Source of the DNA: Planctomycetota bacterium
Lineage (GTDB): Bacteria; Planctomycetota; Planctomycetia; Gemmatales; Gemmataceae
Length of the DNA: 64,000 nt
Direction of reading: 5' to 3'
NCBI GenBank assembly: GCA_016195405.1
Contig: JACPZP010000125.1
Span: 21,665-85,664 of the forward strand
The position numbers and the translations under genes were made by a program. The notes under the pieces are model-generated. The model saw nothing but the letters and a program-made list of their open reading frames with translations, ran no database searches and had not been told where the DNA came from. Positions 16,693-40,616 of the stretch are shown here, one piece after another (positions within the stretch are counted from its first letter, which is position 1; each line of letters starts with the position of its first letter).

Positions 16693-16695
16693 AAC

Positions 16696-17706: not shown

Positions 17707-17722
17707 GGCAGAGCATCTTGCC

Positions 17723-19000
17723 ATGACAGATGTCTTTCAGCCCGGAGAAGATTTCGCCCGGCAGCTCGATGCCGAAGATCTGCTTCGCCATTTCCGCGAC
17801 CGGTTCCACTTCCCGCGCCGGCCGAATGGCTCACCTTATCATTACTTTTGCGGCCATTCGCTCGGGCTACAACCCAAGGCGGTGCGCCACCTGATCGAAC
17901 AGGAGCTGGACGACTGGGCAAGGCTCGGCGTCGAAGGGCACTTCGAAGGAACGACTCCGTGGTACAGCTACCACGAGATCTTTCGCGATAATGGAGCGAG
18001 GCTAGTCGGCGCCCAGCCCGGCGAGGTTGTGATGATGAACAGCCTCACCGTGAATTTGCACCTGATGTTGGCTACGTTCTACCGACCGACTGGCAAGCGC
18101 CGCAAGATTCTAGTCGACAGCCCGACCTTCCCGTCTGATCTTTTCGCCGTGCAGACACATTTACGCCATCGAGGGGCCGATCCGGCGAACGATCTCCTCG
18201 TCGCCCGGCCGCGGTCCGGCGAGCACCTATTGCGCATGGAAGACGTCGAAACGCTGCTTAATACGCATGGCCATGAGATTGCCGTCGTACTTTGGAACGG
18301 CGTCAACTTTTACACGGGCCAACTTTTCGACTTGCAGCTGCTGAGCGAGATCGGCCATGCGCACGGCTGCGTGGTTGGGCTCGAATTGGCGCATGGAGCA
18401 GGCAACGTCGTTCTGCAACTCCATGATTGGCAGGTCGATTTCGCCGTTTGGTGCAACTACAAGTATCTGAATTCAGGACCTGGCGCGGTCGCCGCTTGCT
18501 TCGTGCATGAAAAACATGGCCGAAACCTCGATTTGCCGCGCCTCGCCGGCTGGTGGGGGACCGATCCGCATACGCGCTTTCAAATGGAAGACGGCGACTT
18601 CAAGGCGCAACCCGGCGCCGAAGGCTGGCAAGTGAGCAACCCGCCGATCTTCTCCTTGGCGCCTGTGCGGGCATCGCTGGCGCTTTTTGACGCAGCGGGA
18701 ATGCCCGACCTCCGCGCCAAATCCGAAAAACTGACCGGTTACCTCCACTACCTGCTCGAAGGGCAGGCAGCCAAGGCGTTCGAGATTATCTCGCCGGCCC
18801 GTCTCGAAGAACGCGGCTGTCAGCTATCACTTTTGGTGCATCGCGAGCCGCGCAAGCTCTTTGACGCCTTGCACGGTGCGGGAATGCTGTGCGATTTCCG
18901 GGCGCCCAACGTGATTCGCGTCGCGCCCGTGCCGCTCTACAATTCCTTTGAGGATGTGTGGATGTTTGCCAACACCGTTAAGACGCTGTCGATGAGTTGA
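17723..19000 (+). CDS. kynU: Kynureninase (PLP-dependent)
   Basis: 425 aa. YHYFCGHSLGLQPK...NSLTVNLH...KYLNSGPGAV (PLP lysine region). Confidence 0.9.
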   Translation: MTDVFQPGEDFARQLDAEDLLRHFRDRFHFPRRPNGSPYHYFCGHSLGLQPKAVRHLIEQELDDWARLGVEGHFEGTTPWYSYHEIFRDNGARLVGAQPGEVVMMNSLTVNLHLMLATFYRPTGKRRKILVDSPTFPSDLFAVQTHLRHRGADPANDLLVARPRSGEHLLRMEDVETLLNTHGHEIAVVLWNGVNFYTGQLFDLQLLSEIGHAHGCVVGLELAHGAGNVVLQLHDWQVDFAVWCNYKYLNSGPGAVAACFVHEKHGRNLDLPRLAGWWGTDPHTRFQMEDGDFKAQPGAEGWQVSNPPIFSLAPVRASLALFDAAGMPDLRAKSEKLTGYLHYLLEGQAAKAFEIISPARLEERGCQLSLLVHREPRKLFDALHGAGMLCDFRAPNVIRVAPVPLYNSFEDVWMFANTVKTLSMS

Positions 19001-20364
19001 TTGTGTCCATTTCAGACGCCCCTCAATTCACGATCGTCGGCTCGGGCCTCGCCGGCGCGCTCTTGGCGTGCTACCTCGGCAAGGCGGGTAAACGCGTCGA
19101 CCTCTATGAGAAGCGTTCCGATCCACGCCGTCATGGGGCGGAGAGCGGTCGTTCGATCAACTTGGCCCTTTCCGTTCGCGGCATCAAGGCGCTAGAGGAA
19201 GTTGGGCTGGCGGACCGCGTGCTTCAGAACGCCATTCCGATGCGCGGGCGAATAATTCATTCGCCGACCGGACAACAGACCTTTCAGCGGTACGGCAAAG
19301 ACGAAAGCCAGGCGATCAACTCGGTCTCACGGGCGGGGCTCAATCTCATCTTGATCGAAGCGGCGGCGCGATATCCCAACGTGCGGATGTACTTCGAATC
19401 TCGCTGCACGGGGGTCGATCTCAAAGACATGGCGGTCGAGGTGGTGGAGGAAGTTGGAGTCTGCAATCAGGAGGCTGACACCCCCCGTTCGCCGCGACAT
19501 ATACAATTCGAGACCCTTGTCGGGGCGGATGGGGCGTATTCAGCGGTGCGGGCGGCATTGGAGAAGCAGGAACGCTTCAACTTTCAGCAGGATTATCTCT
19601 CGCACGGTTACAAGGAATTGACGATTCTGCCGGGACAGGGCGGGACGTTTTGTATGGAGAAGAACGCCCTGCACATTTGGCCGCGACATTCATTCATGAT
19701 GATCGCGCTGCCCAACATCGACGGCTCTTTCACGTGTACCCTTTTCTGGGCGTGCGAAGGGCCCAACAGCTTCGCGGCCATTCAGAGCGAAGCGGACCTG
19801 CTTCGATTCTTCAAGGAACAATTTGCCGATGCGATGCCGTTGTTGCCCAACCTCGCAGAAGAATATTTCCACAATCCAGTCGGGCCGCTGGTAACGATGC
19901 GCTGCTCGCCGTGGCACTTCGAGGATCGGATAGTGCTACTGGGAGACGCGGCTCACGCGGTCGTGCCGTTCTTGGGTCAAGGGATGAACGCCGCCTTCGA
20001 GGATTGCACGGTGCTGGCGCGGTGTTTGGAAAAACAACAGACTGAGGCGGCATTCCAAGACTACGAGCGACTGCGCAAGGAACATGCCGACGCGCTCGCA
20101 GACATGGCGATCGATAACTTTCTCGAGATGCGTGACCGCGTGGCTTCGCGGTGGTTTCTCATTCGCAAGAAGGCGTCGCTCCTGCTCTATAAGCTGTTTC
20201 CCGTCTGGTACGTGCCGCTCTACAACTTGATTCAGTTCACGACCACACCGTATGCCGACGCGCGTGGCCGTGCACGGAAGCAAGATCGCATGGTTTGGCG
20301 CGTCGGAATTGGTGTTCTGCTCGTCCTCACCGGCCTCTTCGTTTGGCTATCTGCATTTCGATAG
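18997..20364 (+). CDS. kmo: Kynurenine 3-monooxygenase (FAD-dependent), C-terminal membrane anchor
   Basis: 455 aa. FAD GxGxxG (IVGSGLAGALLA), the DG/GD motifs of class A flavin monooxygenases, hydrophobic C-terminus. Start overlaps the kynU stop. Confidence 0.85.
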   Translation: MIVSISDAPQFTIVGSGLAGALLACYLGKAGKRVDLYEKRSDPRRHGAESGRSINLALSVRGIKALEEVGLADRVLQNAIPMRGRIIHSPTGQQTFQRYGKDESQAINSVSRAGLNLILIEAAARYPNVRMYFESRCTGVDLKDMAVEVVEEVGVCNQEADTPRSPRHIQFETLVGADGAYSAVRAALEKQERFNFQQDYLSHGYKELTILPGQGGTFCMEKNALHIWPRHSFMMIALPNIDGSFTCTLFWACEGPNSFAAIQSEADLLRFFKEQFADAMPLLPNLAEEYFHNPVGPLVTMRCSPWHFEDRIVLLGDAAHAVVPFLGQGMNAAFEDCTVLARCLEKQQTEAAFQDYERLRKEHADALADMAIDNFLEMRDRVASRWFLIRKKASLLLYKLFPVWYVPLYNLIQFTTTPYADARGRARKQDRMVWRVGIGVLLVLTGLFVWLSAFR

Positions 20365-20381: not shown

Positions 20382-21668
20382 CTACCATTTCCAGGTGGCC
20401 TTGCGAACTTTCGCAGGAACGTAGTTGTCGAGGAACGACCAGCGACCAACGGTTTCACCCCAAATGGCCACAAGGCGAATGACCAGCAGCAACATTTGGT
20501 AGAGCGGCACCAGGAAGAACACCATGCAGATGGGCACGTCGCGGCGGAGATTGTTGCTGAAATATAGAAGGGAGGCCACCTGAATGATTTCGAACACCAG
20601 GTAGAGGAGATACAGGGTGAGGAGAATCCACCCGCCGTTGTCGGGTCCTGCGATGAAGAACCAAATGAACCAACCTAATATGGCGAGCGGACAGAAAAGG
20701 GAAAAGAAGCAAGCATCGACCATGAGAAACAGGTTGCTCCAGGAGAAGTTGGCGTTTCGGAAATCCGCAAGGTCGGAGTGTTTGCGGCAATGGTTGCGCA
20801 CGACTCCGCTTTGCTCCCAGCGCATGCGCTGGCGGATGAGTTGTTTCCAAGTGGTGGGGACCTCCGTCAAGCAGTGCGAATAAGGCGCGAACGCGACCCG
20901 GTAGCCGATCTTCCTAAGCGTCAAAGTCAGGTCGAGATCCTCCGGTGGACCCACGTCCCAGCCCTGTACTTTGTCCAAAGCGTCACGGCGGAAGGCGCCA
21001 AAAGCGCCGGAGACGATTCCCAGAATGCCGAACATCGCGGAGACCATCCGGCCCACAAAGATGGTGCTGAGATATTCATAGGCTTGCAACCAAGTGGCCA
21101 AGCTGGTGAACGAGTTGCGAGCCACGACGCAGCCTGCCACGGCGCCCACGCGAGGGTCCCGAAGTGGCTGCACCACCTCCCAAATCGCCTGCGGACCGAG
21201 TTCCGAGTCGGCGTCGATGACCACCACCACTTCCGCTTGGGTGTAGCGCAAGGCGAAGTTCATGGCTGAAGATTTGCCGCCGCGTTCGGGACGGCTTAGC
21301 ACCAAAACCCCGGAATGGGTGCGGGCGAATTGCTGGGCGACCCCTGACATGTCGTCGATCGAGCCGTCGCTGACGACTATGATCTCCAGCCGTGGATACG
21401 ATCCCCACAGGCCGGCGAGAGTGTGACTTATCATCTCCTCTTCGTTGAAACCTGCGACGACGGCGCACACACTCGGACAATAGGTGAAGCGGGGGTTTCG
21501 AGGCCGGCCGCGAAGCCAGCGCCAGAAGCCGCGCGCGCAATCCATCAAGCAAAGAAAGATCTTCGCCACCGCGTAACGCGGCACGTCAGTTAGCAGCAGA
21601 CCCAGGCCGAACAGGAGCAGCTCGTCCGCATGAAGCGAGGAAAGCCAGTGGATCCAATCGGTGAGCAT
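20382..21668 (-). CDS. Family 2 glycosyltransferase, processive membrane-embedded synthase (Alg8/PgaC/cellulose-synthase-like). Start uncertain
   Basis: 428 aa. GT-A motifs (VVSDGSID, DAD, QRMRW = QxxRW), N- and C-terminal TM helices. The 83-bp overlap with the upstream ORF suggests a later start. Confidence 0.85.
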   Translation of the reverse strand: MLTDWIHWLSSLHADELLLFGLGLLLTDVPRYAVAKIFLCLMDCARGFWRWLRGRPRNPRFTYCPSVCAVVAGFNEEEMISHTLAGLWGSYPRLEIIVVSDGSIDDMSGVAQQFARTHSGVLVLSRPERGGKSSAMNFALRYTQAEVVVVIDADSELGPQAIWEVVQPLRDPRVGAVAGCVVARNSFTSLATWLQAYEYLSTIFVGRMVSAMFGILGIVSGAFGAFRRDALDKVQGWDVGPPEDLDLTLTLRKIGYRVAFAPYSHCLTEVPTTWKQLIRQRMRWEQSGVVRNHCRKHSDLADFRNANFSWSNLFLMVDACFFSLFCPLAILGWFIWFFIAGPDNGGWILLTLYLLYLVFEIIQVASLLYFSNNLRRDVPICMVFFLVPLYQMLLLVIRLVAIWGETVGRWSFLDNYVPAKVRKATWKW

Positions 21669-22584
21669 GATAACCTACCAGTTCCAGCTCGAGGGCCTGG
21701 TGGCAGGGAAAACGCAGTTGGCAGCGCAGGCACTGGGCCACGAGGTCCAGCTCGGGGGCGCTCCAATGACAGTCGAAGCAGGTTTGGCGGCCGCGCAGAT
21801 GCTCGAAATCGGCGCCGACGACCAGGCGGCGCGTGCGGCATTTGGGGCAGACCAACTCGCCGCCGGATTCGAAATCGGCCGCGAAGCCGACATGAGCGCA
21901 GGCATAATGGTGGATGAGGCGGTCCTGGGTGACCCGCGCCGAGCCGCACGCCTGGCAACCGCGACGAAAACTCGGCATTCCCTCGCATCGGGGACAGACG
22001 TGCACGCGGTCCCAGGTGAAGCGTTCGAGCACTCCCAGTTCCGCCCACCGCTCGAGCAAGGCCGCCGGTTGGGGCAGGACATATGCCAATTGGCTCGCTA
22101 CGAAACTCGGGGTCAGGTTTTTTGGGTCCAGTAGGTCGTGGGCGGCACCCCCGAAACGGCCACCTAAGTGCAGATCGGGCGTTTCACCGGGCTCATCGCA
22201 AACGGCCAAGCCGGTGCAGACGAAGCCCCCGCCGGGTTTGTCAAGAACGACGACGACGTCCTGGGTCAGGAGATCGACGGGCGATTCCAACTTCAGTCCC
22301 ATGCCCTCGACGCTCAGATCGACTGCGATGGCGTGGCGGCGCCGCACCAGGTCCGGCGAACAATCGGGAAGCAGGGGGATGACTACGGCCGGCGCTTGAA
22401 TGCCGCGGCGTGGGTTCGCACGCACGGCATGCGGCGCAGGCATATCGTGGATCGTTTCGCCGTCGCCGATGACGATCAAGTCCACGAACGTATCACGCGA
22501 ATTAGGCGGACTTTCCTCGAGCGTAAGCACTTGCTCTTCAGTTGCCGGCGACATTGCGTCTCCCAGAATATTGACTCGCGGCAT
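21586..22584 (-). CDS. PilZ-like domain protein with a C-terminal Cys-rich (multi CxxC zinc-ribbon) domain
   Basis: 332 aa. RANPR (RxxxR), then ~32 aa later DLSVEG (DxSxxG). C-terminal half has CPRC...CQAC...CPKC...CFDC...CLRC pairs. Confidence 0.5.
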   Translation of the reverse strand: MPRVNILGDAMSPATEEQVLTLEESPPNSRDTFVDLIVIGDGETIHDMPAPHAVRANPRRGIQAPAVVIPLLPDCSPDLVRRRHAIAVDLSVEGMGLKLESPVDLLTQDVVVVLDKPGGGFVCTGLAVCDEPGETPDLHLGGRFGGAAHDLLDPKNLTPSFVASQLAYVLPQPAALLERWAELGVLERFTWDRVHVCPRCEGMPSFRRGCQACGSARVTQDRLIHHYACAHVGFAADFESGGELVCPKCRTRRLVVGADFEHLRGRQTCFDCHWSAPELDLVAQCLRCQLRFPCHQALELELVGYHAHRLDPLAFLASCGRAAPVRPGSAAN

Positions 22585-22587
22585 GCG

Positions 22588-23757
22588 TCAGGGAAGCTTG
22601 ACTACGCCCCCGATACGCAAGGCCATCCATTGTGCCGATTCGGCTTGGGGAGACAGGTAAAGCGGTAGGAACTTTTGCCCGGCCGCGGAATAGCGTTTAA
22701 GGTGTTCCGGCGCAGCCTCAAATTGTTGGCCCCATCCGTCCACGGTGGCAGTCATGCGATTGGGGTAGGGTTCCACGCACAAAGCCACCGCGTCGCCGAC
22801 GTTGAAATTCTCCGTCATGGATTGCGGCACGAACACCACCGCCCGCAGCGAGCCCTCCTCGAGGAGAGAAATCACCGGCTCGCCTTCCGGGCAGTGTTCC
22901 CCGGCAAAGTGATGGATCTTGAGCACACGACCGGGGCCGCTGGCCAACACGCGGCCTCGATCCAACTGCTCCTTCACGCGTGCCCGCTCCGCGCTCAAGT
23001 ACGCGATCTTGGCAAGGTGCGGCTTGAGTTGATCGTCGCCGTCCTTTGCCAAGCTCTCGCCCAGGTCGACGTCGCCGGCAAGCAGGATCGTGGCCAGCTC
23101 CTTGTGTTTTTTCATTGCCCGCAGCGATTCCTGAAGCTTCTCGACCTTTTTTTGCTGACCAAGGGTTTCGATGCAAATGCGGTCGAGTTCGGCTTCGGCT
23201 AAGGCTTTCTTGACGTACAAGTTCTCGGCCCGGGCGCGTTCCGCCAAGAGCTTTTGCAGGTTAGCTTGTTCGGCGCGAAAGTTACCCACGCTTTCCAGGT
23301 AGCGCGCGCTGGCGGCGTGGCTTTGGTCGAGGTGGAAGGCCGCCTGCCATTTGAGACGCGCAGTCTCCGCGTCCAGAGACGCCTGTGCTTGCTTGATTTC
23401 GTCATCGAGTTGTTGATAGCGGTGCCTTAACGCCGCGTTCTCGACCATCACGAGCAACTGTCCTTGGCGGACAACCTCTCCTTCGTGAACATGGAATTCG
23501 ACCAGCACTCCGGCGTGCGGGGCCGGCACACGCACCACGCGGCCTTCGACGGTTCCGTAGGCACGGTAACGGAAAAATGAGTCCCAAACCTGGTAGCCGC
23601 CCCAACCGCACGCTGCCACCAACAAGATGCCGATAAACCAGCGACCCTTGGGACGATGATGCACCGGAGTCGGCTCCGCAGGCGCTCGGGCTGGCGCCGG
23701 CGTGGCGCCGCGGTAGTTGGGGTAACCGAATTGGGTTGCGGTTTCTGCCGGATTCAT
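22588..23757 (-). CDS. HlyD-family periplasmic adaptor / membrane fusion protein
   Basis: 389 aa. N-terminal TM anchor, biotin-lipoyl-like beta hairpins flanking a long coiled coil. 4 bp upstream of the PilZ-like gene. Confidence 0.8.
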   Translation of the reverse strand: MNPAETATQFGYPNYRGATPAPARAPAEPTPVHHRPKGRWFIGILLVAACGWGGYQVWDSFFRYRAYGTVEGRVVRVPAPHAGVLVEFHVHEGEVVRQGQLLVMVENAALRHRYQQLDDEIKQAQASLDAETARLKWQAAFHLDQSHAASARYLESVGNFRAEQANLQKLLAERARAENLYVKKALAEAELDRICIETLGQQKKVEKLQESLRAMKKHKELATILLAGDVDLGESLAKDGDDQLKPHLAKIAYLSAERARVKEQLDRGRVLASGPGRVLKIHHFAGEHCPEGEPVISLLEEGSLRAVVFVPQSMTENFNVGDAVALCVEPYPNRMTATVDGWGQQFEAAPEHLKRYSAAGQKFLPLYLSPQAESAQWMALRIGGVVKLP

Positions 23758-24288
23758 GGTAAGGCGGGCTCAATCGGCATGGGCTTCTGGCGGACCGTAC
23801 ACTCAGACATGAAAACTTAGGTCATGGTTGGTTCTTGTCAAAAAATGCGCCGGAAAAATCATTAAAAAGAGCCTTCAAGCGCCATCGACGGCGCGCATTG
23901 TGCTTTCGGCTCATTGAATCTCAGAGCAGCCAATTCTCATGCTACGCAGAGTGACACGTCCCGCGATTTCGAGACCCCCAGCAGAAAATCGTACCGCTCG
24001 AGGGTGAATTCACAAGTGCTTGGCAATAAATGGGATCGGGATTTCGTTTCACTCGAGCGGGACGTTTTGCATGAGGGCGTACTCCCGGAATTGTCCGTAT
24101 TCCCAAACCTGATGACAAAGTGCCAAAGCAATGCCTCCACAAGCAATATCTCCACCTGTTAGCAGAGGATTAAGCGCGGGCTCACGTTGTGGAACATTCG
24201 ACGGGCCGTTAGAAACTCATGTACGAAATCGCTTCGTCTCGGGAAGCATTTAATAGAAGAGTACAAGCCAATAACTGGGAAGGAACGA

Positions 24289-25752
24289 ATGGCGACAAGC
24301 CAGATAAACGGGGTAATGAGACATCTGCGGCGAGTGCTCCGGCCTCGCGAGATAGAACGCACGACCGATGGCAAACTGTTGACGGACTTCCTGCGTCATC
24401 GCGACGAGGGTGCTTTTGAGACCATCGTGCGGCGGCACGGCGGCCTGGTCATGGGCGTTTGTCGCCGCGTGCTTGCGAACACGCACGATGCCGAGGATGC
24501 TTTTCAGGCCACCTTCCTGGTGCTCATCCGCAAGGCCAGCTCCCTGGCGTCGCCGGATCTGCTTGCGAATTGGCTCTACGGCGTCGCCTATAACACGGCT
24601 CTCAAAGCTCGGGCATGGACGGCGAAGCGCCGCCGGAGGGAACAACACTTGACGCATCTGCCTGATACGGAAGCGGCCGAACGAAATGCGGACGAGCGGG
24701 ATTTATGGAACGATCTGCAGCCCTTGCTCGATCAGGAACTCAGCCGCTTGCCCGACAAGTATCGTGTCCCGATCGTGCTCTGCGATCTGGAGGGCAAGAG
24801 CCGGAGGCAAGCCGCGCAGCGAATCGGCTGTCCCGAAGGGACGGTTTCGGGCCGGCTCGCTCGAGCGCGCGCCATGCTCGCCAAGCGGCTCACGCGGCGC
24901 GGCCTAGCGTTGGCTGGAGGATCGTTGGCATTCGTGTTGGCCGAGAACGCTTCCGCGGCCAGCGTGCCAAGCTCGGTGGTGATTACGATTGTCAAGGCCG
25001 CAGGCTTGCATGCGGCAGGGCAGGCGGCGACCGCAAGCATGGTCTCGACCAAGGTTGCTGCTCTCGCAGAAGGAGTGCTCAAGTCCATGATGCTAACCAA
25101 ATGCAAAATCGCGACAGCGGTACTTTTCATCGCGGCTGCGCTGGGATTCAGCGGCCACGGGTTCTTGCAGGCGCTGGCGGATGAACCTACGCAACCAATC
25201 GCCAAGCAAGAACCGCAAGAGCCCAATGGCAAGCCCGCGCAGGACGACGACGTCGGCAAACTCACTTTGCCTCAAGGCCCGATGCCGACTCAGGCATTGG
25301 TGAGTCTTGATGATGCGGGTCAATTGGTCGTGCGAACGCGCGAGGCAGCCTATAAGCAATTCGCTCAGGGGCAACAATTAATGGTGGTCGACGAAATCAA
25401 GACTCGTCAATACAAGCTGGGAGAAGTGCAAGTGTTCGACGTGCGCGTCGAGCCGATTGACCCCAAACAACTTCCGAAGATGCTCGCGAAGGAAGTCGCG
25501 GCCCTGATCATTCGAGGCCGGCAACCGCTCGATCCGCTTCACTTCCGCCTTCATAAGGAAGGGACGCTGGTCTTCGTGATTCCGCTTCCACCTGGGCCTG
25601 CTCCGCCTGCGGCTGCGGGCGGCTTCGGCGGCGGAGGATTCGCAGTGCCTCTTCCACCTGCAGGCGCCGTGCCCGTGCGCAATGGAGTCCCTGTACTCCC
25701 GCCCCCCGTGGCACCCCAGCAGGCTCTGCCAAGCGCGCCGCAGAGACGATAA
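24289..25752 (+). CDS. ECF sigma factor fused to a C-terminal transmembrane / Pro-Gly-rich extension (start at MATSQ; ORF opens at 24187)
   Basis: Sigma-2 region ([20 protein letters not shown]) and sigma-4 HTH ([32 protein letters not shown]), then a TM helix ([14 protein letters not shown]) and a Pro-rich tail. Confidence 0.8.
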
Positions 25753-25831: not shown

Positions 25832-26683
25832 TCAAGCTACACTAGCGCAATAATGAGCACCCCACGCGGCGGGAAGAGCTTCAGGATCGAGGCCGCGAAG
25901 CAACCCCTGCTGCCGATCGATTTCGTCCGCCTTTAACAGATTCAATGCCTGAAGTTGGTCGCGGACTTCGTCGTAGAACATCAACATGTTCTCAATCATC
26001 AGCTCGTTCGACCGGCATTCCGACCAGCCGGCGCGCACACAGCTGTAACCCGCCGCTTCAAGCGATCTGGCTAAGCTCGCGCCCACGTCGGGCGAGAGCC
26101 GCTTAACGAGGTAAAGCTGGTTGATGACTTCCCCCCAAACACGCAGAGGCGCAAGCTCGGTTCGGCCGCTCGCTTCGAGAAACGCGAGGCGGGCCAGCGG
26201 CGCCCGAAAGTCCGGCTCAATGAAACCAACACGCGTTCCCGGTCGAAGGCGAGTGCGAAGGCGGCCAATCATGATTTCAACCATCGGCACATGATGAAGC
26301 ACCGCCCGGCCGACAACCACATCCGCCCCGTCGAGCCATTCTCCGAGCATCGAAATATCGGAAGCGACGGTCTCGAAGCGCGCGGGACCGAGCTTGCCTA
26401 AGCTGTTTCGCGCCTGGGCAAGTAAGCATTCGCTCGCATCGACGCCGATCAGTACGCCGCCCGCGCCAAGACGCCGGAGAATTCGGCGGCTCAGGCCGCC
26501 CGGGCCGCAGCCGAGTTCGATGACTCTGTCGTGTGGTCGCAGCGCCAGCTCGTCAAGAAGTTTCTCGGAAACGTCCGCGAAATGACTGTCTTGGATTTCG
26601 AGTCGCCGTGCGGCGCCTACCGATTGCCCCAGCACATAGTCGTGCGCTGCACTCTTATTTGCACTCACCCTTGCATTCCCCAT
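25832..26683 (-). CDS. Class I SAM-dependent methyltransferase
   Basis: 283 aa. Motif I VIELGCGPGG, motif II GVDASE, motif post-I. Start overlaps the upstream cyclase gene by 19 bp. Confidence 0.8.
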   Translation of the reverse strand: MGNARVSANKSAAHDYVLGQSVGAARRLEIQDSHFADVSEKLLDELALRPHDRVIELGCGPGGLSRRILRRLGAGGVLIGVDASECLLAQARNSLGKLGPARFETVASDISMLGEWLDGADVVVGRAVLHHVPMVEIMIGRLRTRLRPGTRVGFIEPDFRAPLARLAFLEASGRTELAPLRVWGEVINQLYLVKRLSPDVGASLARSLEAAGYSCVRAGWSECRSNELMIENMLMFYDEVRDQLQALNLLKADEIDRQQGLLRGLDPEALPAAWGAHYCASVA

Positions 26684-27894
26684 TTCCAGGCCTTCACCTT
26701 GCCGACATTGCGGGCTTCCAGCGCGTCCATCTCTTGAAAGCCGCTTTTGACCGTGTCGGGTAATTCGTTGAATGTGGTGTTGCCGACGACCATTTCACCG
26801 GGACCGGCGGCCGCCATCAATCGGGCGGCGATATTGATCGGGTCGCCGATGGCCCCCATGTGGGTGCGGCTGTAGGGACGCAGCGAAAGGAACTGAAGGT
26901 TGCCCTGAGCCATGCCGATGTGTACGCCCGAAAACTCCTGAACGCGGTCCAGTTGCCTCTGCCAGTCTTGGGCAACTGAATTGCCGATGCTCAAAAGCCC
27001 CCGAGCCGCTTGAAAGGCGTTGGCTGCGTCCTCGGAGCTTTGCTTGGGAACGCCGAAGAGCCCGATGGCTTCATCGCCGACGAATTGATAGAACATGCCG
27101 CCCCGGTTGATGATCTCGTAGCGGGATTTGGAATAGAACGACGTGAGGCTGTTGCGGACTACCGCGTCGTCGTGGGTGTCGCGGACAAAACTGGAAAACG
27201 AACACAGATCGGCCAGTACCACGACCACCTTGTCGTATTTACCCGGCGGCAATAGCTGTCGCGTCGTGAATTGGTGCTTTTCGCGCAGTTGCCGAATTTT
27301 CCAAAAGCCCAGATGCCAAGTCAGCACCGAACGCAAGTGAGTGTGGTCGTACTTTTCCAGCGAAGCGCCGCCGAATGCATAGAAACCTTTGGCGCGATCC
27401 ACGGCCTGGCGAATCTGGAGAAGACTCTCTTCGGAAATGGCAGTGATGTCGACGCCGAAATTCTGCCGCAACAGGGCCATCAGGCGTTCTTCGTCCCAGA
27501 CCTCCAGCGTCAAACCCGCGCCGGCCAAAACCTGACGAAGCTTCTCGATCGTGTCATCCCAATCAGGCCGTCCCTGCCGGTCCACGAATAGGGTCACTTG
27601 TTGGGCATTCTCCATTGCGGGCGTGCGCGCGCCGTACTTGCGGCCCATATGTTGCAACAGCACCGGCTGCGGATATCCGAACTTGATTTCGACAAAAACA
27701 GGGGGCTGGCCGGGCTGCGAAACGCGAATGTCGGCAAACGCGCCCGAGCTGCCCAAATCAACTTCGCGCTCAATCGCCAGGCATTCGGGTTGAACTTCCT
27801 TGTTTCGCAGGCCCTGGAATCGAAGCAGATCGCAGCACAACTCTTCGAGGAGAAGCCGCAATGGATTCAAGGAACCATCAGAGTGCTCGGCCAT
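26665..27894 (-). CDS. Class III adenylate/guanylate cyclase with an N-terminal ~200-aa restriction-endonuclease-like (PD-(D/E)xK-like) domain
   Basis: C-terminal CHD: VVVVLADLCSFSS...FVGDEAIGLFG...GDPINIAARL. N-terminal half has E...FADIRV...VFVEIKF, i.e. the E/D-(D/E)xK arrangement. Confidence 0.8.
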   Translation of the reverse strand: MAEHSDGSLNPLRLLLEELCCDLLRFQGLRNKEVQPECLAIEREVDLGSSGAFADIRVSQPGQPPVFVEIKFGYPQPVLLQHMGRKYGARTPAMENAQQVTLFVDRQGRPDWDDTIEKLRQVLAGAGLTLEVWDEERLMALLRQNFGVDITAISEESLLQIRQAVDRAKGFYAFGGASLEKYDHTHLRSVLTWHLGFWKIRQLREKHQFTTRQLLPPGKYDKVVVVLADLCSFSSFVRDTHDDAVVRNSLTSFYSKSRYEIINRGGMFYQFVGDEAIGLFGVPKQSSEDAANAFQAARGLLSIGNSVAQDWQRQLDRVQEFSGVHIGMAQGNLQFLSLRPYSRTHMGAIGDPINIAARLMAAAGPGEMVVGNTTFNELPDTVKSGFQEMDALEARNVGKVKAWKWGMQG

Positions 27895-27898
27895 TGAG

Positions 27899-29293
27899 TT
27901 AGCTCAGAATCTCTTGAATTGGTCCATTTCCCTCTTCGACCAAGCGCATGGTTCGCCCCAGCACCTGGATTTCCATCCGCTGGTGATCCAGTCCCAACTG
28001 CTGAAGAATCGTGGCATGCAAATCACTGAAATAATGCCGATTCTCGACGGCTCGATAGCCGACTTCATCCGTGGCGCCGTGGACGATGCCGCCTTTGACG
28101 CCGCCGCCCGCGAGCCAGGACGTGAAGCCCCGCGGATTGTGATCGCGGCCGGTCGTGTTCTGCGACCACGGACTTCTGCCGAACTCGCTGGTCCACACCA
28201 CGAGCGTTTCGTCGAGCATGCCGCGCTGCTTCAAGTCGCGGATCAGGCCGGCAATAGGCTTGTCGGTCGCCCGGCAGAGCGGTCCCTGAGTCCGGATGTC
28301 GCCGTGCGCGTCCCAGGCGCCGTTGCCGCCGCCGGCATGGCAAACTTGGATGAAGCGAACTCCTCGCTCCGCCAAACGGCGGGCGAGCAGAAGCTGCCGG
28401 CCGAAGTCTTCGGTTTCGCTCTCGCCGATGCCGTAGAGGTCTCGCACGTGCCTTGGTTCGCCGGCAAAATCAACCGCCTCCGGGGCGGCCAGTTGCATTC
28501 GGGCGGCTAGCTCGTAGGACCTCGCACGGGCCGCAATCTCTGAATTGGTGGCGTATCGTTCGCGGAACTCACGGTTAAGATCGTGAAGAGCCTGCATCTG
28601 CCGTTCACGCTCGGCGGGGTTGGTTCCCACGGGCGCGTTCAAGTTGGGGACTGGGGACGGTCCCGGCTGGAACGGCGTGGCGGCCACACTCGCACCTAGG
28701 TAGCCGCCGGTTAGCTGCACCGGCGAGGAAGGCCGGCCAATGTTCACGAACGTCGGTAAGTTCTCATTGGCGCTGCCGAGCGCGTGCGCGACCCAACTGC
28801 CAAGCGTCGGATGATCGAATTGCCGGCCCTGGTGTCCCGTGCAGCACTCGATCGCTGCCGGAAAGTGATTCGCTTCATTGCACCAAATCGAGCGAACGAC
28901 GGCAATGTCGTCGATAACGCCGCCAACGTGCGGGAACCAATCGGAAACCGGGATGCCAGACTGCCCATAGCGTCGAAAGGTCCTGAGGCATGGGATCACC
29001 GGGCGCCGCATCTCGGCTTGGTTGTCGCCAAAACCGATGACATCGATAAGCGTGCCGGCCCAACGATTGTCTTTGGGGTCAAAAGTGTCAATATGGCTGA
29101 CGCCGCCGCACATGAAGAGGAAGATGACGGACTTCGCCTTGGGCTGCGGGCGCTGCTCAGACAAAGTGTCCCGTGTCTGGCCTGCTTTCGCCCAGAGAGC
29201 GCCGAGCGCGAGTCCGAGGAAGCCGCCGCCGGCCTGAAAGAAAAAGCCGCGGCGGGAGATGCGGTCGCAAAGGTAGAGATACGAGTTGGGCAT
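27899..29293 (-). CDS. DUF1501 family protein (sulfatase-like, Tat-signal)
   Basis: 464 aa. Twin-arginine-like signal (SRRGFFFQAGGG). Planctomycete DUF1501 architecture. Sits 5 bp upstream of the cyclase and 6 bp downstream of the DUF1553 ORF. Confidence 0.85.
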   Translation of the reverse strand: MPNSYLYLCDRISRRGFFFQAGGGFLGLALGALWAKAGQTRDTLSEQRPQPKAKSVIFLFMCGGVSHIDTFDPKDNRWAGTLIDVIGFGDNQAEMRRPVIPCLRTFRRYGQSGIPVSDWFPHVGGVIDDIAVVRSIWCNEANHFPAAIECCTGHQGRQFDHPTLGSWVAHALGSANENLPTFVNIGRPSSPVQLTGGYLGASVAATPFQPGPSPVPNLNAPVGTNPAERERQMQALHDLNREFRERYATNSEIAARARSYELAARMQLAAPEAVDFAGEPRHVRDLYGIGESETEDFGRQLLLARRLAERGVRFIQVCHAGGGNGAWDAHGDIRTQGPLCRATDKPIAGLIRDLKQRGMLDETLVVWTSEFGRSPWSQNTTGRDHNPRGFTSWLAGGGVKGGIVHGATDEVGYRAVENRHYFSDLHATILQQLGLDHQRMEIQVLGRTMRLVEEGNGPIQEILS

Positions 29294-29298
29294 TGGAA

Positions 29299-31466
29299 TT
29301 ACCGCACAAAAACAAACTCATCCAAATTAAACAGCAGCCACGCGAAGCCAGTTAGCCGCGCCGCGTCATTGCCAAGATACGCCAGTGCTCGGTTCATCTC
29401 CGACTCCGAAGACGGGCGTGCGATCGCCGTTCGATAGCCCAGGTCCACGGCGGCTTTCAAATCCTCGCCAACGGCTTTCTTGAGCCTTTCGGCGAACTTC
29501 GTGGTGGCCTTTTCGATCACGTCGCTATTCATCAGGAACAGGGCCTGCGGCGCGGTGACGGTGTGCGTCCTTATCGGACAGGGAGCGCGGCCGTCGTCGG
29601 CATCGAACGCTTGCAGGAAGCTCGGCATGACATCGCGGTTGTTCGCGTAGCCGCGGATGATGTAGGCGCCGCGACGTACGAGAGGCGAAGAAGAGGGGCG
29701 AGGGGCGAGCACTGATAATCCATCCTTCGGATCAAAGGACGGGCCGCCGATCGTCAGGTCGAGGCTTCCGGCCGAGCCGAAAATCGAATCCCAAACCGTC
29801 TCGGCGTCGAGACGCCGCAGCGGGAAACGCCAAAGATGCGTATTTCCAGGATCGATTTTCAGATTGGCCTCTCGCTCCTCAGACGTTCGCCGGTACGCTC
29901 CTGAAGTAACGATGAGCCGGTGCATCGCCTTCATGCTGAAGTTCTGCTTCACGAATTCGGACGCCAACCAATCGAGCAATTCCGGATTGGACGGCGATCC
30001 ACCCAGCTTGCCGAAATCGTTGGGCGTCTTTTGCAAACCCTCGCCGAAGTGCCACTGCCAGAGGCGATTCACCGCTACTCGGGCGAAAAGCGGGTTTTCG
30101 GGCGCGGTGAGCCATTGGGTGAATGCCTCGATCCTGCCGTTGCGGAAGTCGATCTTGGGCGTGGTAAACGGCCAGCCGGGGCCAACCTCGTTCCTTTTTT
30201 GCGGCCTGGCGGGATCGCCGCTCGTCAGGATGTAGCTCTTTTCCAGTTCCTTTTTCCGATCGACTTCCACGGTCCAGAAGACAGGCAGCGTCAAATCTGC
30301 TTTGGTTTTCTCCAATTGCTTGAAGCCATTGACCAGCGCTTGGTACTTTTGACGATCCGTTTCCGGCATGATCCCCATGATCTTGCCCACGTCGATGCGC
30401 AGGATCGGGAAGTAATCGTCGGCGATCTTCTCCTCAAGGGCGGGCGCTGTTTCTCGGGCTTGAGAATGACGGCCCGCACGTCAGCGGGAAGCTGGGCCAC
30501 GCGCTCATCGAACAGTTTCTTCTTGTAAGGAGCGATCAACTCGAGAATGGGCGTCTGCACTGCCGCCAACTTTTTGTCCAGCGCATCGAGCGCGTGGCCA
30601 TGCGCCGTCACCTCGGCCGGATTGGCGAGCGTGACCTTTCTCAAAACGAGCGGATCGAAGAGCGCTTTCATGGCGTAGAAGTCACGCTGCTTGATGGGGT
30701 CGTACTCGTGGTCGTGGCATTTGGCACAGCCGACGGTCAAGCCCATGAAAGCCGTGGACACGGTCTCGACGGCCGCGATGGGCAATTCCTGGATTTCCTT
30801 GTCGCCGTGAACGACCGCGCCGCGGGCGAGAAACCCCAGAGCGAATAGGTCATCCGGCCGAGGCGCCACGCGCTCTTGAAAGCCGAGAACCGAGACCTCG
30901 GTGCGCGCAGTGGTTCGGCAGCCGGTCAACTGTGCGCACACGAATTGGTTGTAGGGCATATCGCTGTTGAGGGCGTTGATGACCCATTGACGCCACAGAT
31001 GGATGCCGGGCGCGGCGATCATGCCCTCGTCTACGTCGGCGTAACGGAGCACGTCGAGCCAATGCCGCGCATAGCGGACGCCGTGCTGCTCGCTGGCCAA
31101 AAGCCGATCGACCACTTTTTCATAGGCATCCGAAGACTGGTCCTGGAGAAACGCCTCCTGTTCGGCGGGACTCGGCGGGATGCCGACCAAATCGAGGTGG
31201 ACGCGCCGCAGCAGAGTGCGCCGATCGGCGGCTTCTGCTGCTTTCAGGCCTTTCGTCTGATGTTGGGCTGCGATAAAGGCGTCGATGGGATTGGCCGACT
31301 TGGCGGCTCCAACCGGAAGCGGCGGGCGGATTACGGGCTTGAGATACCAGGGCTTCGGAGTCTTGTCGTCGGTGTCGTCCGGCTTTGACGATCCGGCACC
31401 TGTTCCTGCAAGCCCGAGCGCGGACACAAGCATGCAAACACACACAGGCCAGCGAAGCGTTGCCAT
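29299..31466 (-). pseudogene. DUF1549/DUF1553 (PSCyt/PSD) family gene, interrupted by a -1/+1 frameshift near 30440-30455
   Basis: ORFs 30291..31466 (signal peptide, DUF1549-like N part) and 29299..30390 (DUF1553-like C part) overlap by 100 bp. A continuous sensible protein (...ILKPEKQRPALEEKIADDYFPILRIDVGKIMGIMPE...) is recovered by a 1-nt shift in the CGCCCGCCC run. Confidence 0.7.
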
Positions 31467-31657
31467 CTCTCTTGGCCCCCCAGGAAATCGTCGGCGCAGA
31501 ATTGATGCTATCCTTTGGGAAGCACAGAGTCAAACCGACACGCCGGCGGCATTCTTCAGCCGCAAGGACTTTTGCTGGCCCGCCATACCTTACATGGCCC
31601 AATCCGTGAGCTATGCTTGATTTGCAACAACTGTTCCCCCATCGGTGAGGCTCAGTC

Positions 31658-32974
31658 ATGCGGAGAAAATCGTCCAGGGTCAGATTGGCGAAGATCGGGA
31701 AATACCAGATCCTCGAAAAGATCGGCACCGGCGGCCAGGGGAAGGTCTACAAAGGGCTTGACCGGAACACGGGTCAATTCGTCGCGATCAAGATGATACC
31801 CGTGGAAGCGGCCGAAGACAGGGAGCAGGGCTTGCGGTTCGCCCAGGAATGTCAGGTCACCAAAAAGCTCGATCACCCTCACATCTTGCGCGTCCTGGAT
31901 TTCGGCATGGAGGGTCAGAAGCCGTTTCTCGTTATGGAATTCGTCGACGGCGAAAACCTGATGCAACGGCTCACCCGCGACGGCAAGATCCCGCCGGCGG
32001 AAGCGGTTCGCTTGCTGTCCCAAGTCGGCCACGCCCTGAATTGGACGCACCAGCGACAACTCATTCATCGCGACATCAAGCCGGCCAACATTCTCATCAC
32101 GAAGAACGGCGATGCCAAGCTCACCGATTTCGGCATCGCCAAGAACCTCGAGGGCGAATTCCAGCTTACGCAGCCCTGCAGTTGGCTCGGCACGCCAAGC
32201 TTCATGTCTCCCGAGCAATTTGAGGACGCCAAACGGGCCGATGCTTTGTGCGATCTCTATTCGCTGGCTGCCACCTTGTACATGACGATTACGGGCGTCA
32301 TCCCCTTTCGGGGCCGCTCGGCGAGCGCCCTGGCCGCGATTTACAAGAAAAAGCTGGCCAACGATATTGTGCCTCCGCGACAACTCGTGCCCGAGACGAG
32401 CGAGCGCGTGAACGCCGCCATCCTCCAAGGAATGCGGGCCGATCGGCGCGAACGCCACGCTTCCATGGCGGCATTTCTGGAAGCGCTTCTCGGAGAGGAG
32501 TCGGCTGCGGCCGCGGCGAATGCCATTAATGCGCGAGCGGATTCCTCCGCGCCGCAGGCGCCCGCTTCCGGGAAAGAACGCAGAATTCTGAAACGCTATC
32601 CCTGCGGCCAAAGCGCCGCCTGCCAGCCCATGGAGAGAGTTGTCCCGTGGGTCGGCAAAGTCGTGAACATCTCCCAGACCGGCCTTTGCGTGGAGTTGCC
32701 GCGCCGCTTCGAGCCCGGCGCCATTCTCCAAATCGCGCTGCCCGCCAAAGACACCGAACGGAACGTCATCGTGCGCGTCATGTGGGTCAAGAGACAAGCC
32801 GAGAAGCTCTGGCAAATGGGATGTCAATACGATTACCCACTGTACGATTTCGAAGTGGACGGCTTTCGCGTCACGAAACGCCGCGGGGACAAAAGTGGGG
32901 AACGGCCGCGCCCACGAAAATCGTCGGCATCCATACCCCGGCCACGGCAGCAGGTCGCAGGCAACGCGCGTTGA
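31658..32974 (+). CDS. Ser/Thr protein kinase fused to a C-terminal PilZ domain
   Basis: Hanks kinase motifs (GxGxxG, VAIK, HRDIKPAN, DFG, SPEQ). C-terminal RRILKR (RxxxR) then NISQTG (NxSxxG) 22 aa later. Confidence 0.85.
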   Translation: MRRKSSRVRLAKIGKYQILEKIGTGGQGKVYKGLDRNTGQFVAIKMIPVEAAEDREQGLRFAQECQVTKKLDHPHILRVLDFGMEGQKPFLVMEFVDGENLMQRLTRDGKIPPAEAVRLLSQVGHALNWTHQRQLIHRDIKPANILITKNGDAKLTDFGIAKNLEGEFQLTQPCSWLGTPSFMSPEQFEDAKRADALCDLYSLAATLYMTITGVIPFRGRSASALAAIYKKKLANDIVPPRQLVPETSERVNAAILQGMRADRRERHASMAAFLEALLGEESAAAAANAINARADSSAPQAPASGKERRILKRYPCGQSAACQPMERVVPWVGKVVNISQTGLCVELPRRFEPGAILQIALPAKDTERNVIVRVMWVKRQAEKLWQMGCQYDYPLYDFEVDGFRVTKRRGDKSGERPRPRKSSASIPRPRQQVAGNAR

Positions 32975-37759: not shown

Positions 37760-40546
37760 ATGAACGCTTTCGAAGACAATGCCAGGTCGATTTTCCTCGC
37801 CGCCCTGGAACGTGCGCCCGACCAATGGCCCGCTTTCCTGGACGAGGCCTGCGGCGACAATGCTGAGCTGCGGGCACGGGTCGATCAACTCCTGCACTCC
37901 CACCAGGCGATAGGCAGCATTCATGCGATAGGCAACATTCATGGGGGCGGCGCAGAGAAGCAAGATGGCACGCGCGACCAGTCCATGGCCGAGCGCCCCG
38001 GCGCCGTCATCGGCCCGTACAAGCTCCTGCAGCAGATTGGTGAAGGCGGCTTCGGGACGGTCTTCATGGCTGAGCAGACCCAGCCGGTGCAGCGCAAAGT
38101 CGCCCTCAAGGTCATCAAGCCCGGCATGGGCGGCCGCCAGGTGATCGCCCGCTTCGAGGCGGAACGACAAGCCCTGGCCATGATGGACCATGTCAACATC
38201 GCCCGCGTCCTCGACGCCGGGACAACGGAATCCGGCCTGCCGTATTTTGTCATGGAGCTGGTCCACGGAGTGCCCATTACCAAGTATTGCGACGACAACC
38301 AACTGACGCCGCGCGAGCGCCTGGAGCTGTTCGTGCCGGTGTGCCAGGCGATCCAGCACGCCCACCAGAAGGGCATCATTCACCGCGACATCAAGCCGTC
38401 CAACGTCATGGTCACGCTCTACGACGGCAAGCCGGTCCCCAAGGTGATCGACTTCGGCGTGGCCAAGGCGACCGAGCAAAAGCTGACCGAGCGGACCCTG
38501 TTCACGCAGTACGGCACCATGGTCGGCACGCTGGAATACATGAGCCCGGAGCAGGCGGAGATGAGCGGGCTGGGCGCCGACACCCGCAGCGACATCTACT
38601 CGCTGGGCGTGCTCCTGTACGAGCTCTTGACGGGCAGCACGCCGCTCTCCCACAAGCGGCTCAAGGAAGCGGCCTATGCCGAGATTCTCCGCATGATCAA
38701 GGAGGAGGAGCCGCCCAAGCCGAGCACGCGGCTCTCCGACTCGGGGGAAGCGCTGGCGTCGATCTCGGCGCATCGCCACATGGAACCGGCCAAGCTGACG
38801 AAGCTGGTCAAGGGCGAGCTGGACTGGATCGTGATGAAATGCCTCGAGAAAGACCGCAACCGCCGCTACGAGACCGCCAACGGCTTCGCCGCCGACGTGC
38901 AGCGCTACTTGGACGACGAGCCGGTGCTGGCTTGCCCACCGTCGGCAGTCTACCGGCTCGGTAAGTTTGTCCGCCGCAACCGCGGCCAGGTCATCGTCGT
39001 TGCCGTCGTGCTGCTCTGCTTGATCGGAGGCATGGTAGGCACGACCTGGGGCCTCATTCGTGCAATAAACGCAGAGGAACAGGCTAAGGACGATGCCAAG
39101 AAAGCGAAGCGCTCCGATGAGGAGGCGCGGGCGGTGCTCGGCTTCTTCCAGGAACGGGTTCTGTCAGCCCTGCGGCCGAAGGGCCTGGAGGGGGGGCTCG
39201 GCAAGGACGCCACGATTCGCGACGCCCTGGACGCGGCCGAGCCGGAGATCGAGAAGGCCTTCGCCGGACAGCCCCTCGCAGAGGCCACCATCCGCGACAC
39301 GCTGGCCACCAGCTACTGGCACCTCGGCGAAAACGAGGTAGCCATCCGGCAATATGAGCGCGCTCTGGCCCTTCGTCGCCAAGCTCTCGGTCCCAACCAC
39401 CGCGATACGCTCATGAGCATGAACAACCTCGCCAATGCCTACGGAGACGCCGGCCGCATCGCGGACTCGCTGGCGTTGCACGAACAAACACTCCGGGAGC
39501 GCCGTGCCCAGTTGGGGCCCGAGGACATCGATACGCTGGAAAGCCTGAACAACCTCGGCATGTTTTATATTGATGCCGGACGGCCTGCGGAGGCTGTGCC
39601 GCTGCTTGAGGAATCGTTCCGGAAAGCCAAAGCAAAGCTCGGCCCCGACCACGTGGATTCCCTGTCAGGCATGGGTAATCTGGTCCGGGGATACGTCGAG
39701 GCCGGCCGACCGACCGAGGCTTTGCCGCTTGCCCTGGAGGTGGTCGAACGCTGCACGCTCAAACTTGGGCTCGACCACCCGGGCACGCTCATCGCGCGGC
39801 AGAACTTGGCGCTGACTTACCGCGACATGGGTCGGCTAAGCGAAGCCTTGCCGCTGTTTGAGGATGTCCGCAATCGCGCCGAGGCTGTGGTCGGCGGTGA
39901 TCATCCCGGTGCGCTGAGCGGCATGTATTTCCTCGGCGTGGCCTATCAATGCATGGGCCGATTGGACGACGCCGGTCCCCTTCTGGCGGAGACACTCAAA
40001 CGGTGCAGAGCCAAGATAGGCTCGGACCACCGGAAGACGCTCATGGTCATCGCCGCCTTGGCCGCGACCTACGAGGAGGCCGGCGAATTGGGCAAAGCGG
40101 AACCCCTCGGCCAGGAGTTGGTGTCCGGCACTCGCCGGCGGCTCGGTCTGGATCACCCCGACACCAACGCAGCCCTGACCCAGCTCAGCCTGATCTTGGT
40201 GAAGCAGCACAAGCTCGACGACGCCGAGCCCCTCGCGCGCTAGGGCCTGGCCCTAGTGGAGAAGAAGCAGCCGGACAGCTGGCAGCGTTTCCAAGCTATG
40301 AGTGTGCTTGGCGCTGGCCTGCTCGCCCGGAAGAAATACGCGGAAGCCGAACCACTTCTACTCCAGGGTTACGCCGGGCTGCAGGAACGGGCCGCCAAGA
40401 TGCCGGCGCCCGCCAAGAAGCACCTCGGCGAGGCCCTTGAGCGGCTCGTGCGGCTCTACGACGCGGCCGGCCAGCCGGAGAACGCGGCCGAGTGGCGGCG
40501 GAAGTTCGAGGCGGAAAAGAGGGAAGAAAAAAAGCCGGGACCGTGA
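37760..40546 (+). CDS. Ser/Thr protein kinase with TM segment and C-terminal TPR array. Reading frame interrupted by a single in-frame TAG at 40241..40243
   Basis: Kinase motifs ([27 protein letters not shown]), TM ([14 protein letters not shown]), >8 TPR units. The TPR sequence continues in the same frame after the TAG (...[22 protein letters not shown]...). Confidence 0.85.
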
Positions 40547-40574
40547 CCCCGGCTGACGACCGCCCAAAAGAAAC

Positions 40575-40616
40575 GGCCGGTGAGGTCCTTACCGCCAAGC
40601 AAGCCCCTCACCGGCC
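40575..40616. repeat. Palindromic element GGCCGGTGAGG-(loop)-CCTCACCGGCC, copy 1
   Basis: 11-bp perfect inverted arms around a TCCTTACCGCCAAGCAAGCC loop. Related copies at 42253..42343. Confidence 0.8.

Follow-up and report, generated by a model that had tools for sequence, protein, structure and literature searches.

A 64,000-nucleotide (nt) stretch of contig JACPZP010000125.1, from a planctomycetotal genome of the Gemmataceae, was analysed over its full length and is referred to here as the window; its genes, PolA and those of the kynurenine pathway among them, mark it as core chromosome. The gene string under study lies on the minus strand at 25832-31466 and codes for PSCyt2/PSD1 (DUF1549/DUF1553) and DUF1501 proteins, for a 409-amino-acid (aa) protein in which an N-terminal domain (N-domain) of restriction-endonuclease fold precedes a class III cyclase, and for an S-adenosylmethionine (SAM)-dependent methyltransferase. 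The best explanation of the results, which we hold to be rather more probable than its negation, is that the genes of this string are an unrelated run and that the functional unit is the 409-aa protein standing alone, with its N-domain as the input module. The string looks like a compact run of functionally unrelated genes, packed with ordinary tightness, and not like a functional module. The 409-aa protein, a class III cyclase whose putative input domain is a novel one of nuclease fold, belongs to a widespread, uncharacterised bacterial family, the N-domain of which has no Pfam model.

The nuclease-fold N-terminal domain and the linker

A sequence-only reading of this DNA had pointed to a PD-(D/E)xK-like arrangement at the N-terminus of the 409-aa protein, and the motif E...FADIRV...VFVEIKF is present, with E17/E18, D55 and E69-x-K71 as the residues concerned. 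AlphaFold2 modelled the full-length protein with a predicted local distance difference test (pLDDT) score of 92.3 and a predicted TM-score (pTM) of 0.91, and residues 1-215 alone with a pLDDT of 92. Residues 9-146 of the model form a helix, three strands, a helix, a strand, a helix, a strand and a helix (H9-30, E40-46, E53-59, E66-70, H76-87, E99-103, H112-124, E129-133 and H135-146, H standing for helix and E for strand), which gives the N-domain, as predicted, the canonical PD-(D/E)xK layout with its alpha-beta-beta-beta-alpha-beta core. Foldseek searches with the N-domain reached a best E-value of 2.5e-3, and the high-probability matches were SfsA, NucS, Can2, Cdn1 and CdiA-CT, all of them nuclease-fold proteins. 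A Pfam scan of the N-domain of the window protein alone returned noise only; weak matches to PF18154 (pPIWI_RE_REase) were obtained for 16 of 120 homologues (best E-value 2.2e-5), these 120 sequences, on which the invariance and alignment figures are based, being the best 120 of 710 homologues.

In this alignment E17, E44, D55, E69, K71, R85, K86 and W133 are invariant, the conserved basic residues of the N-domain are R25, R85 and K86, and the N-terminal half of the protein is conserved to the same degree as the cyclase half. Among representatives taken at 50% identity, D55 is found in 125 of 129 and E69 in 131 of 134. The modelled fold and the conserved acidic/Lys triad bear out the N-domain as it had been read from the sequence, and the near-universal D55 and E69 together with the conserved basic residues would argue for a working metal/phosphodiester site rather than a relic.

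The N-domain shares with the PD-(D/E)xK superfamily (closest solved structure AF1548, 1y88; also R.BspD6I, NgoMIV, NucS, SfsA and, in Pfam, pPIWI_RE_REase) the core, the Glu of helix 1, the Asp of strand 2 and the ExK of strand 3. It differs by its great divergence, with 9-17% identity to solved structures and a nuclease activity that is a prediction, and by never being free-standing at the sensitivity of phmmer but always joined to a cyclase. When the N-domain alone was searched by phmmer against 1.84 billion representative proteins, 208 matches were obtained, almost all of the ~410-aa architecture or fragments, and therefore the nuclease-fold domain seems to travel only with this cyclase.

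The helical linker that follows carries the motifs DRAKGFxAFGG and WHxGFW, in which A173 and W193 are invariant and F174, G175 and H194 are each found in at least 90% of the 120 sequences; we infer that it transmits a signal to the cyclase domain.

The cyclase domain

The C-terminal part of the protein matches PF00211 at residues 218-400 with 25.4 bits against a cut-off of 21.9, and all 120 homologues also match this model. The family profile recovered CyaC (1wc0) from the PDB at 9e-15, and the cyclase domain was superposed on Spirulina CyaC by Foldseek with a TM-score of 0.84 (E-value 5e-13). In the profile alignment the metal-binding D229 and D274 and the transition-state residues N354 and R358 correspond to D1017, D1061, N1146 and R1150 of CyaC, each of the four being conserved in at least 90% of the 120 sequences, and from these residues the domain looks catalytically competent. 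By its fold, its sequence and its active site, the 409-aa protein is a class III nucleotidyl cyclase. A single chain supplies both metal-binding Asp residues as well as the Asn/Arg pair, which implies that the enzyme is a homodimer and has two symmetric sites.

The base-specifying positions are Q270 and G347, which bear on the adenylyl or guanylyl type of a cyclase and not on its membership of the class. The canonical pair is Lys with Asp or Thr for ATP and Glu with Cys for GTP, and a Gln at the first of these positions has a precedent in Mycobacterium tuberculosis Rv0386. Because Gln and Gly replace the canonical Lys/Asp or Glu/Cys pair, the nucleoside triphosphate substrate is not predictable from the sequence and, the specificity pair being non-canonical, the product may be neither cAMP nor cGMP.

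Class III cyclases are the main bacterial makers of cAMP and cGMP; diverse N-terminal regulatory domains are common among them, and the input that is sensed is set by this domain. The window protein resembles members with N-terminal regulatory domains, such as CyaC and the mycobacterial Rv1264 and Rv1625c, in its cyclase-homology fold preceded by an N-terminal domain and a helical linker, and differs from them in that the N-domain has a restriction-endonuclease fold outside Pfam and in its Gln/Gly pair.

Distribution and fusions of the family

The best 120 of the 710 homologues are nearly all 403-437 aa long, aligned over their full length and 50-60% identical to the 409-aa protein; family members include proteins of Limnoglobus roseus and of the betaproteobacterium Usitatibacter rugosus. 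In contigs representing one genome per species of GTDB (185,579 species), 94 relatives were found in more than 10 phyla, and identity across phyla within the family is 40-60%. The 80 loci kept from these span Planctomycetota, Verrucomicrobiota, Acidobacteriota, Myxococcota, Alpha-, Beta- and Gammaproteobacteria, Chloroflexota, Methylomirabilota and others. Nearest homologues share the phylum of the query in 59 of 81 cases, with clear exceptions, among them an Anaerolineales protein 68% identical to a Limnoglobus one; this suggests mostly vertical inheritance with some transfer.

A few representatives carry an extra domain, namely a Ser/Thr kinase at the N-terminus (three) or at the C-terminus (one), an FHA domain (one) or TIR_2 (three). 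These fusions suggest that the cyclase unit plugs into the phospho-signalling of large-genome bacteria. One TIR-fused member adjoins genes for bPH (bPH_5), PEGA and large TPR proteins. In U. rugosus (CP053069.1, locus positions 3863-7239) the first base of the cyclase orthologue is also the final base of a full-length RelA/SpoT gene, a 1-nt overlap that hints at a possible coupling of (p)ppGpp and cyclic nucleoside monophosphate (cNMP) signalling in that lineage. No description of this stand-alone family was found in the literature, where searches for fusions of a restriction endonuclease with a cyclase, or for N-terminal domains of PycC, gave nothing specific beyond the NaeI-type combination of PMC7159879 discussed below.

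Gene neighbourhood of the cyclase

The surroundings of the cyclase gene were compared in 84 loci, of which 80 came from the one-genome-per-species contigs and 4 from exact-protein look-up. By tblastn with the window neighbours, a methyltransferase homologue lay near the cyclase in 0 of 84 loci and DUF1501, DUF1549 or DUF1553 in 2 of 84, both verrucomicrobial. All-against-all clustering of the flanking ORFs (open reading frames) revealed no conserved neighbour, and the nearest flanking genes lie on either strand about equally often (~50/50). The 73 upstream and 77 downstream neighbours include RecA, histidinol dehydrogenase (HisD), RtcB, aldehyde dehydrogenase and dihydroorotate dehydrogenase (DHODH); on neither side do more than 2 of them share a Pfam family. 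The cNMP_binding family was found for 2 of the 77 downstream neighbours, and the families listed for the 73 upstream ones do not include it; the PADLOC families listed for neighbours are generic models only, of kinase or methyltransferase type, none of them matching more than 2 neighbours. These loci show a cyclase family that stands alone, without a dedicated partner gene, among housekeeping genes.

The sole locus with the order DUF1553, DUF1501, cyclase and methyltransferase belongs to a metagenomic relative (L085, 90% identity), and this synteny is taken to be simply inherited, as its proteins are 80-93% identical to those of the window. Functional coupling of the cyclase to DUF1501/DUF1549-1553 and to the methyltransferase, which the sequence-only reading had proposed, is consequently unsupported, the gene order being conserved neither in the 84 cyclase loci nor around the methyltransferase homologues of three loci. 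That reading had staked itself on a nuclease fold with a conserved triad and on a gene order kept elsewhere; the former holds across the homologues and the latter does not.

Ser/Thr kinases, the commonest neighbour cluster (9 loci, duplicate fetches counted), were considered as a partner and rejected, since their positions and orientations vary and they are immediate neighbours in only 2 of 77 and about 1 of 73 cases. Kinase adjacency by chance is expected, as the window alone has three kinase genes.

Organization of the gene string

Five minus-strand ORFs fill 25832-31466 (Table 1), and the coordinates of the sequence-only reading agree exactly with the ORF list, while Pfam bears out its DUF1549/1553, DUF1501, cyclase and methyltransferase calls. 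Its gaps of 6 bp and 5 bp were coordinate differences, the true intergenic gaps being 5 nt and 4 nt, while the 19-nt overlap between cyclase and methyltransferase is correct when the latter starts at the ATG at 26683. With the GTG start at 26668, which is the NCBI call of 278 aa, the methyltransferase overlaps the cyclase stop codon by 4 nt (GTGA).

Table 1. Coordinates of the features of the gene string and of related loci
Feature	Position	Strand	Description
Weak sigma-70-like promoter match	31505-31533	-	9/12 match upstream of first gene; possible common-transcript start
PSCyt2/DUF1549 ORF	30291-31466	-	391 aa; Pfam PSCyt2 228 bits, 1.5e-67
Frameshift site, run CGCCCGCCC	30436-30446	-	~1 base missing or extra at roughly 30438-30444
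PSD1/DUF1553 ORF (listed GTG start)	29299-30390	-	363 aa; Pfam PSD1 262 bits, 8e-78
DUF1501 ORF	27899-29293	-	464 aa; Pfam DUF1501 433 bits, 1.4e-129
Nuclease-fold/class III cyclase ORF	26665-27894	-	409 aa; NCBI MBI3410866.1; Pfam Guanylate_cyc PF00211
Predicted PD-(D/E)xK restriction-endonuclease-fold core	27457-27894	-	residues 1-146; E17 in helix 1, D55 in strand 2, E69-x-K71 in strand 3
Conserved helical linker	27250-27456	-	residues 147-215; H155-174, H186-195, H197-207 (AlphaFold2 secondary structure)
Class III cyclase homology domain	26665-27249	-	residues 216-409
SAM methyltransferase ORF	25832-26683	-	283 aa; Pfam Methyltransf_31/12/25
Extra-domain relatives	P0148, P0166, P0191, P0121, P0126, P0136, P0135, P0150; locus L088 552-2291		TIR_2, kinase or FHA added

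The packing of this four-gene string (the two PSCyt2/PSD1 halves counted as one) is not unusual for the window, because 12 of its 34 same-strand junctions measure 10 nt or less, and equally tight strings are found at 16087-20364, 20382-23757 and 42533-46947. A scan for promoter consensus found 2 sites against 1.3 expected from shuffles, which is not significant, and a scan of the string for terminator consensus gave no signal above the shuffle background; counts at the shuffle level neither support nor refute a single transcript, and a common transcript for the string is plausible. Only the DUF1501 and PSCyt2 proteins carry export signals, the cyclase and the methyltransferase having neither kind, so the string mixes exported and cytoplasmic proteins.

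DUF1501 and a frameshifted PSCyt2/PSD1 gene

The DUF1549 and DUF1553 parts had been taken for one gene, but as sequenced they lie in different frames, split by a 1-nt frameshift near 30,440, and there is no single intact gene. In tblastn and three-frame translation, the alignment to an intact 831-aa homologue (L048) runs in frame -3 as far as 30444, the 5' half matching its residues 149-444, and resumes in frame -2 at 30240, the 3' half being covered over 30240-29305. Direct reading shows that frame -2 is sensible already from 30438 and that the homology of the PSD1 half truly starts near there, '...KPEKQR' of frame -3 running on as 'LEEKIADDYFPILRID...' in frame -2 after a one-base slip. Either the gene is a pseudogene with a lesion here or the assembly is in error; the frameshift site lies outside the coverage of the close relative L085, in which the counterpart of the PSD1 part is 80% and that of DUF1501 93% identical.

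Read from the translations, the PSCyt2 half has an N-terminal Sec-type signal peptide, MATLRWPVCVCMLVSALGLAGTGAGS, and the DUF1501 protein a twin-arginine export motif, SRRGFFFQAGGGFLGLALGALWA (SRRGFF). DUF1501 with PSCyt/PSD1 is a known, multiply duplicated module of the Planctomycetes-Verrucomicrobia-Chlamydiae (PVC) superphylum, of unknown function (Kamneva et al. 2012, PMC3542564), and the DUF1501 protein of the string, with its twin-arginine motif and adjoining a signal-peptide-bearing PSCyt2/PSD1, pairs with the PSCyt/PSD1 protein as its exported partner and belongs with this module. The present copy differs from it by the frameshift in PSCyt2/PSD1 and by the adjoining cyclase and methyltransferase, a cyclase not being among the module partners described (PMC3542564). 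No second DUF1501/PSCyt copy was found in the window by tblastn.

The SAM methyltransferase

The methyltransferase is a class I SAM-dependent enzyme, identical (100%) to a 278-aa NCBI protein from a metagenome-assembled genome, and belongs to a well-conserved family of ~274 aa with homologues 70-75% identical. In the three homologue loci examined, the contexts were an epimerase with a tRNA synthetase, MazG, and DUF7133, and no cyclase lay beside the methyltransferase homologue in any of them. In the window its gene lies between those of the cyclase and of an ECF (extracytoplasmic function) sigma factor.

A PADLOC match to mad2 was considered as a sign of MADS (mad1-mad8 locus around Mad2) and rejected as generic SAM-fold similarity, for it covers only the SAM-binding core (residues 38-158). 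No multi-gene locus of the MADS kind surrounds the gene, with cyclase and ECF sigma factor as window neighbours and unrelated housekeeping contexts around the homologues.

The ECF-type sigma factor (24187-25752, plus strand) has regions 2 and 4 within residues 80-231, is followed by a C-terminal extension of ~290 aa with no Pfam match, and is convergent with the methyltransferase gene. Another metagenome contig has a comparably long ECF sigma factor two genes upstream of a methyltransferase homologue.

Proposed mechanism and alternative explanations

In the reading that we prefer, the 409-aa protein would be homodimeric, with its two active sites formed at the interface, by analogy with other class III cyclases. 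Its nuclease-fold N-domain would be the input module, binding in a metal-dependent manner, and possibly cutting, a nucleic acid or another phosphodiester ligand; the ligand signal would pass via the helical linker and so set the cyclase output, and the resulting cNMP may be read by the general cNMP receptors of the cell, with no dedicated neighbouring effector. Several points weigh against this reading. For every member of the family, sensor role, ligand and product alike are conjectural. K71 is kept in 109 of 130 representatives, while 16 others have Asp there and a few have T, M, C, N or A (~15-20% replaced), and one kinase-fused representative (P0136) has lost D55 and also E44, so that the N-domain may not be a nuclease in every member. 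The neighbours in the 80 loci were called by a simple longest-ORF heuristic, and because conserved peptide patterns served to retrieve these loci, well-conserved members of the family are favoured. A link to the methyltransferase confined to this lineage may exist, given the tight spacing, the start/stop overlap and the synteny in the close relative. Finally, the PADLOC PycC models match the cyclase domain, though weakly (at most 36 bits, best E-value 7.7e-10), and TIR-fused relatives exist, both of which point weakly towards defence.

The altered K71 and the missing D55, together with the weak Foldseek similarity to nucleases and the variety of regulatory domains known at the N-termini of class III cyclases, would also fit an N-domain that is a degenerate scaffold for dimerisation or for binding of a small ligand or metal, with no role in nucleic acids, in an otherwise ordinary regulated cyclase. 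Active restriction enzymes, BamHI for instance, include ExD and ExE variants, and the near-universal D55 and E69 with conserved R25, R85 and K86 form the pattern of a working metal/phosphodiester site, leaving the scaffold a rather unlikely explanation. A bolder form of the input-module reading has the protein as a self-contained, nucleic-acid-triggered synthase of a second messenger, in which binding or cleavage of a DNA or RNA structure by the dimeric N-domain would switch on cNMP synthesis, the trigger possibly being a damage intermediate, a free end or foreign nucleic acid; we regard it as conceivable, though rather unlikely. Functionally it would resemble DNA-activated cGAS, the protein itself combining a restriction-endonuclease fold with a class III cyclase.

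The sequence-only reading had also seen a loose likeness to Pycsar-type logic, and a fused defence protein of this kind would be an infection-sensing cyclase, the cNMP of which activates the nuclease domain in cis or in trans and leads to DNA degradation and abortive infection. The protein shares with Pycsar and Pucsar a class III-type cyclase as signal generator, besides the weak PycC matches and the TIR domain of some relatives. Neither the protein nor the adjacent genes, which code for DUF1501 and the SAM methyltransferase, contain a cNMP-binding domain, and no adjacent effector with such a domain fused to a transmembrane or TIR domain (as in the CNBD-TIR or 3TM effectors) is present; among the neighbours in other loci, such a domain is listed for the two downstream ones already mentioned. 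Analysis of the 73 upstream and 77 downstream neighbours by Pfam and PADLOC showed no enrichment of defence genes but housekeeping genes. With the family profile, CyaC scores 57.8 bits and the deposited chain 7r65, which we take to be a Pycsar cyclase structure, 25 bits. The family is also highly conserved and mostly grouped by phylum, whereas immune cyclases are reported to evolve fast (bioRxiv 10.64898/2026.08.12.744502). In the section of this preprint consulted, none of the Pycsar architectures has a nuclease-fold domain at the N-terminus; the words REase and restriction endonuclease are absent from the preprint, and nuclease-fused cyclases go unmentioned (bioRxiv 10.64898/2026.08.12.744502). 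The Pycsar-type proposal is unsupported and is judged quite improbable; a physiological signalling enzyme fits better than a Pycsar-like defence protein because the cyclase is stand-alone, lies in a housekeeping context and is grouped by phylum. A nearer architectural parallel is offered by the vWA-MoxR ternary conflict systems, in which NaeI-type restriction endonuclease and cNMP cyclase domains co-occur in one polypeptide (Kaur et al. 2020, PMC7159879). There they are effector regions of large vWA-component proteins in multi-gene systems, while here the protein has ~410 aa and is stand-alone, with no vWA or MoxR partner; the NaeI-type domain and the N-domain are likened by domain type, which does not establish homology between the two nuclease domains.

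The least probable explanation, to which we give very little credence, is that of one functional four-gene operon, in which the periplasmic DUF1501/PSCyt-PSD1 proteins, the cyclase and the methyltransferase serve a single pathway, for example from envelope status to cNMP. In keeping with it, the junctions are short (5 nt and 4 nt) or overlapping and L085 has the same order; a single weak promoter-like site precedes the string, within which no terminator signal rises above background. Such junctions are nevertheless common in the window, the order is absent from the 84 cyclase loci and the three methyltransferase loci, and the synteny of L085, at ~90% identity, is inherited. Two of the proteins are exported and two are not, the PSCyt/PSD1 gene is frameshifted, and PMC3542564 lists no cyclase among the DUF1501 partners.

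The family of nuclease-fold cyclases numbers more than 700 detected members in more than 10 phyla, including the cultured L. roseus and U. rugosus, and its input domain keeps the signature of a nuclease active site. Should the N-domain read nucleic acids, DNA or RNA status would be linked directly to cyclic-nucleotide signalling in one polypeptide. If the nucleic-acid-triggered form were true, many soil and freshwater bacteria would have a conserved 'nucleic-acid alarm' feeding general cNMP signalling, and the kinase-, FHA- and TIR-fused variants would wire this alarm into phospho-signalling or NADase outputs. The analysis also removes a false lead, the link of DUF1501/PSCyt-PSD1 to cNMP signalling being most probably an accident of gene packing.

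Other features of the window

The single tRNA gene, for tRNA-Thr (CGT), at 53274-53345 on the minus strand and a cyclic di-AMP (ydaO-type) riboswitch at 48175-48395 on the plus strand (49 bits against a gathering score of 38) were the only RNA genes found in the window. Shortly downstream of the riboswitch begins a 762-aa ORF (48472-50760) that codes for an SPFH/Band_7 domain, seemingly an unusual gene to follow such a riboswitch.

A Ser/Thr kinase with a C-terminal PilZ (cyclic di-GMP-binding) domain is encoded at 31658-32974 on the plus strand, divergent from the string, and further kinases are found at 37760-40243 (kinase-TPR) and at 44518-46947 (kinase with a periplasmic-binding domain). 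The tight minus-strand string at 20382-23757, with junctions of at most 3 nt or overlapping, codes for a GT2 glycosyltransferase, a TackOD1 ('thaumarchaeal output domain 1') protein and an HlyD-like protein. The G+C content is 0.63-0.68 across 38001-46000, against about 0.59 elsewhere in the window, and the AT skew reaches -0.24 at 56001-58000, over a 628-aa ORF (55942-57828) with no Pfam match.

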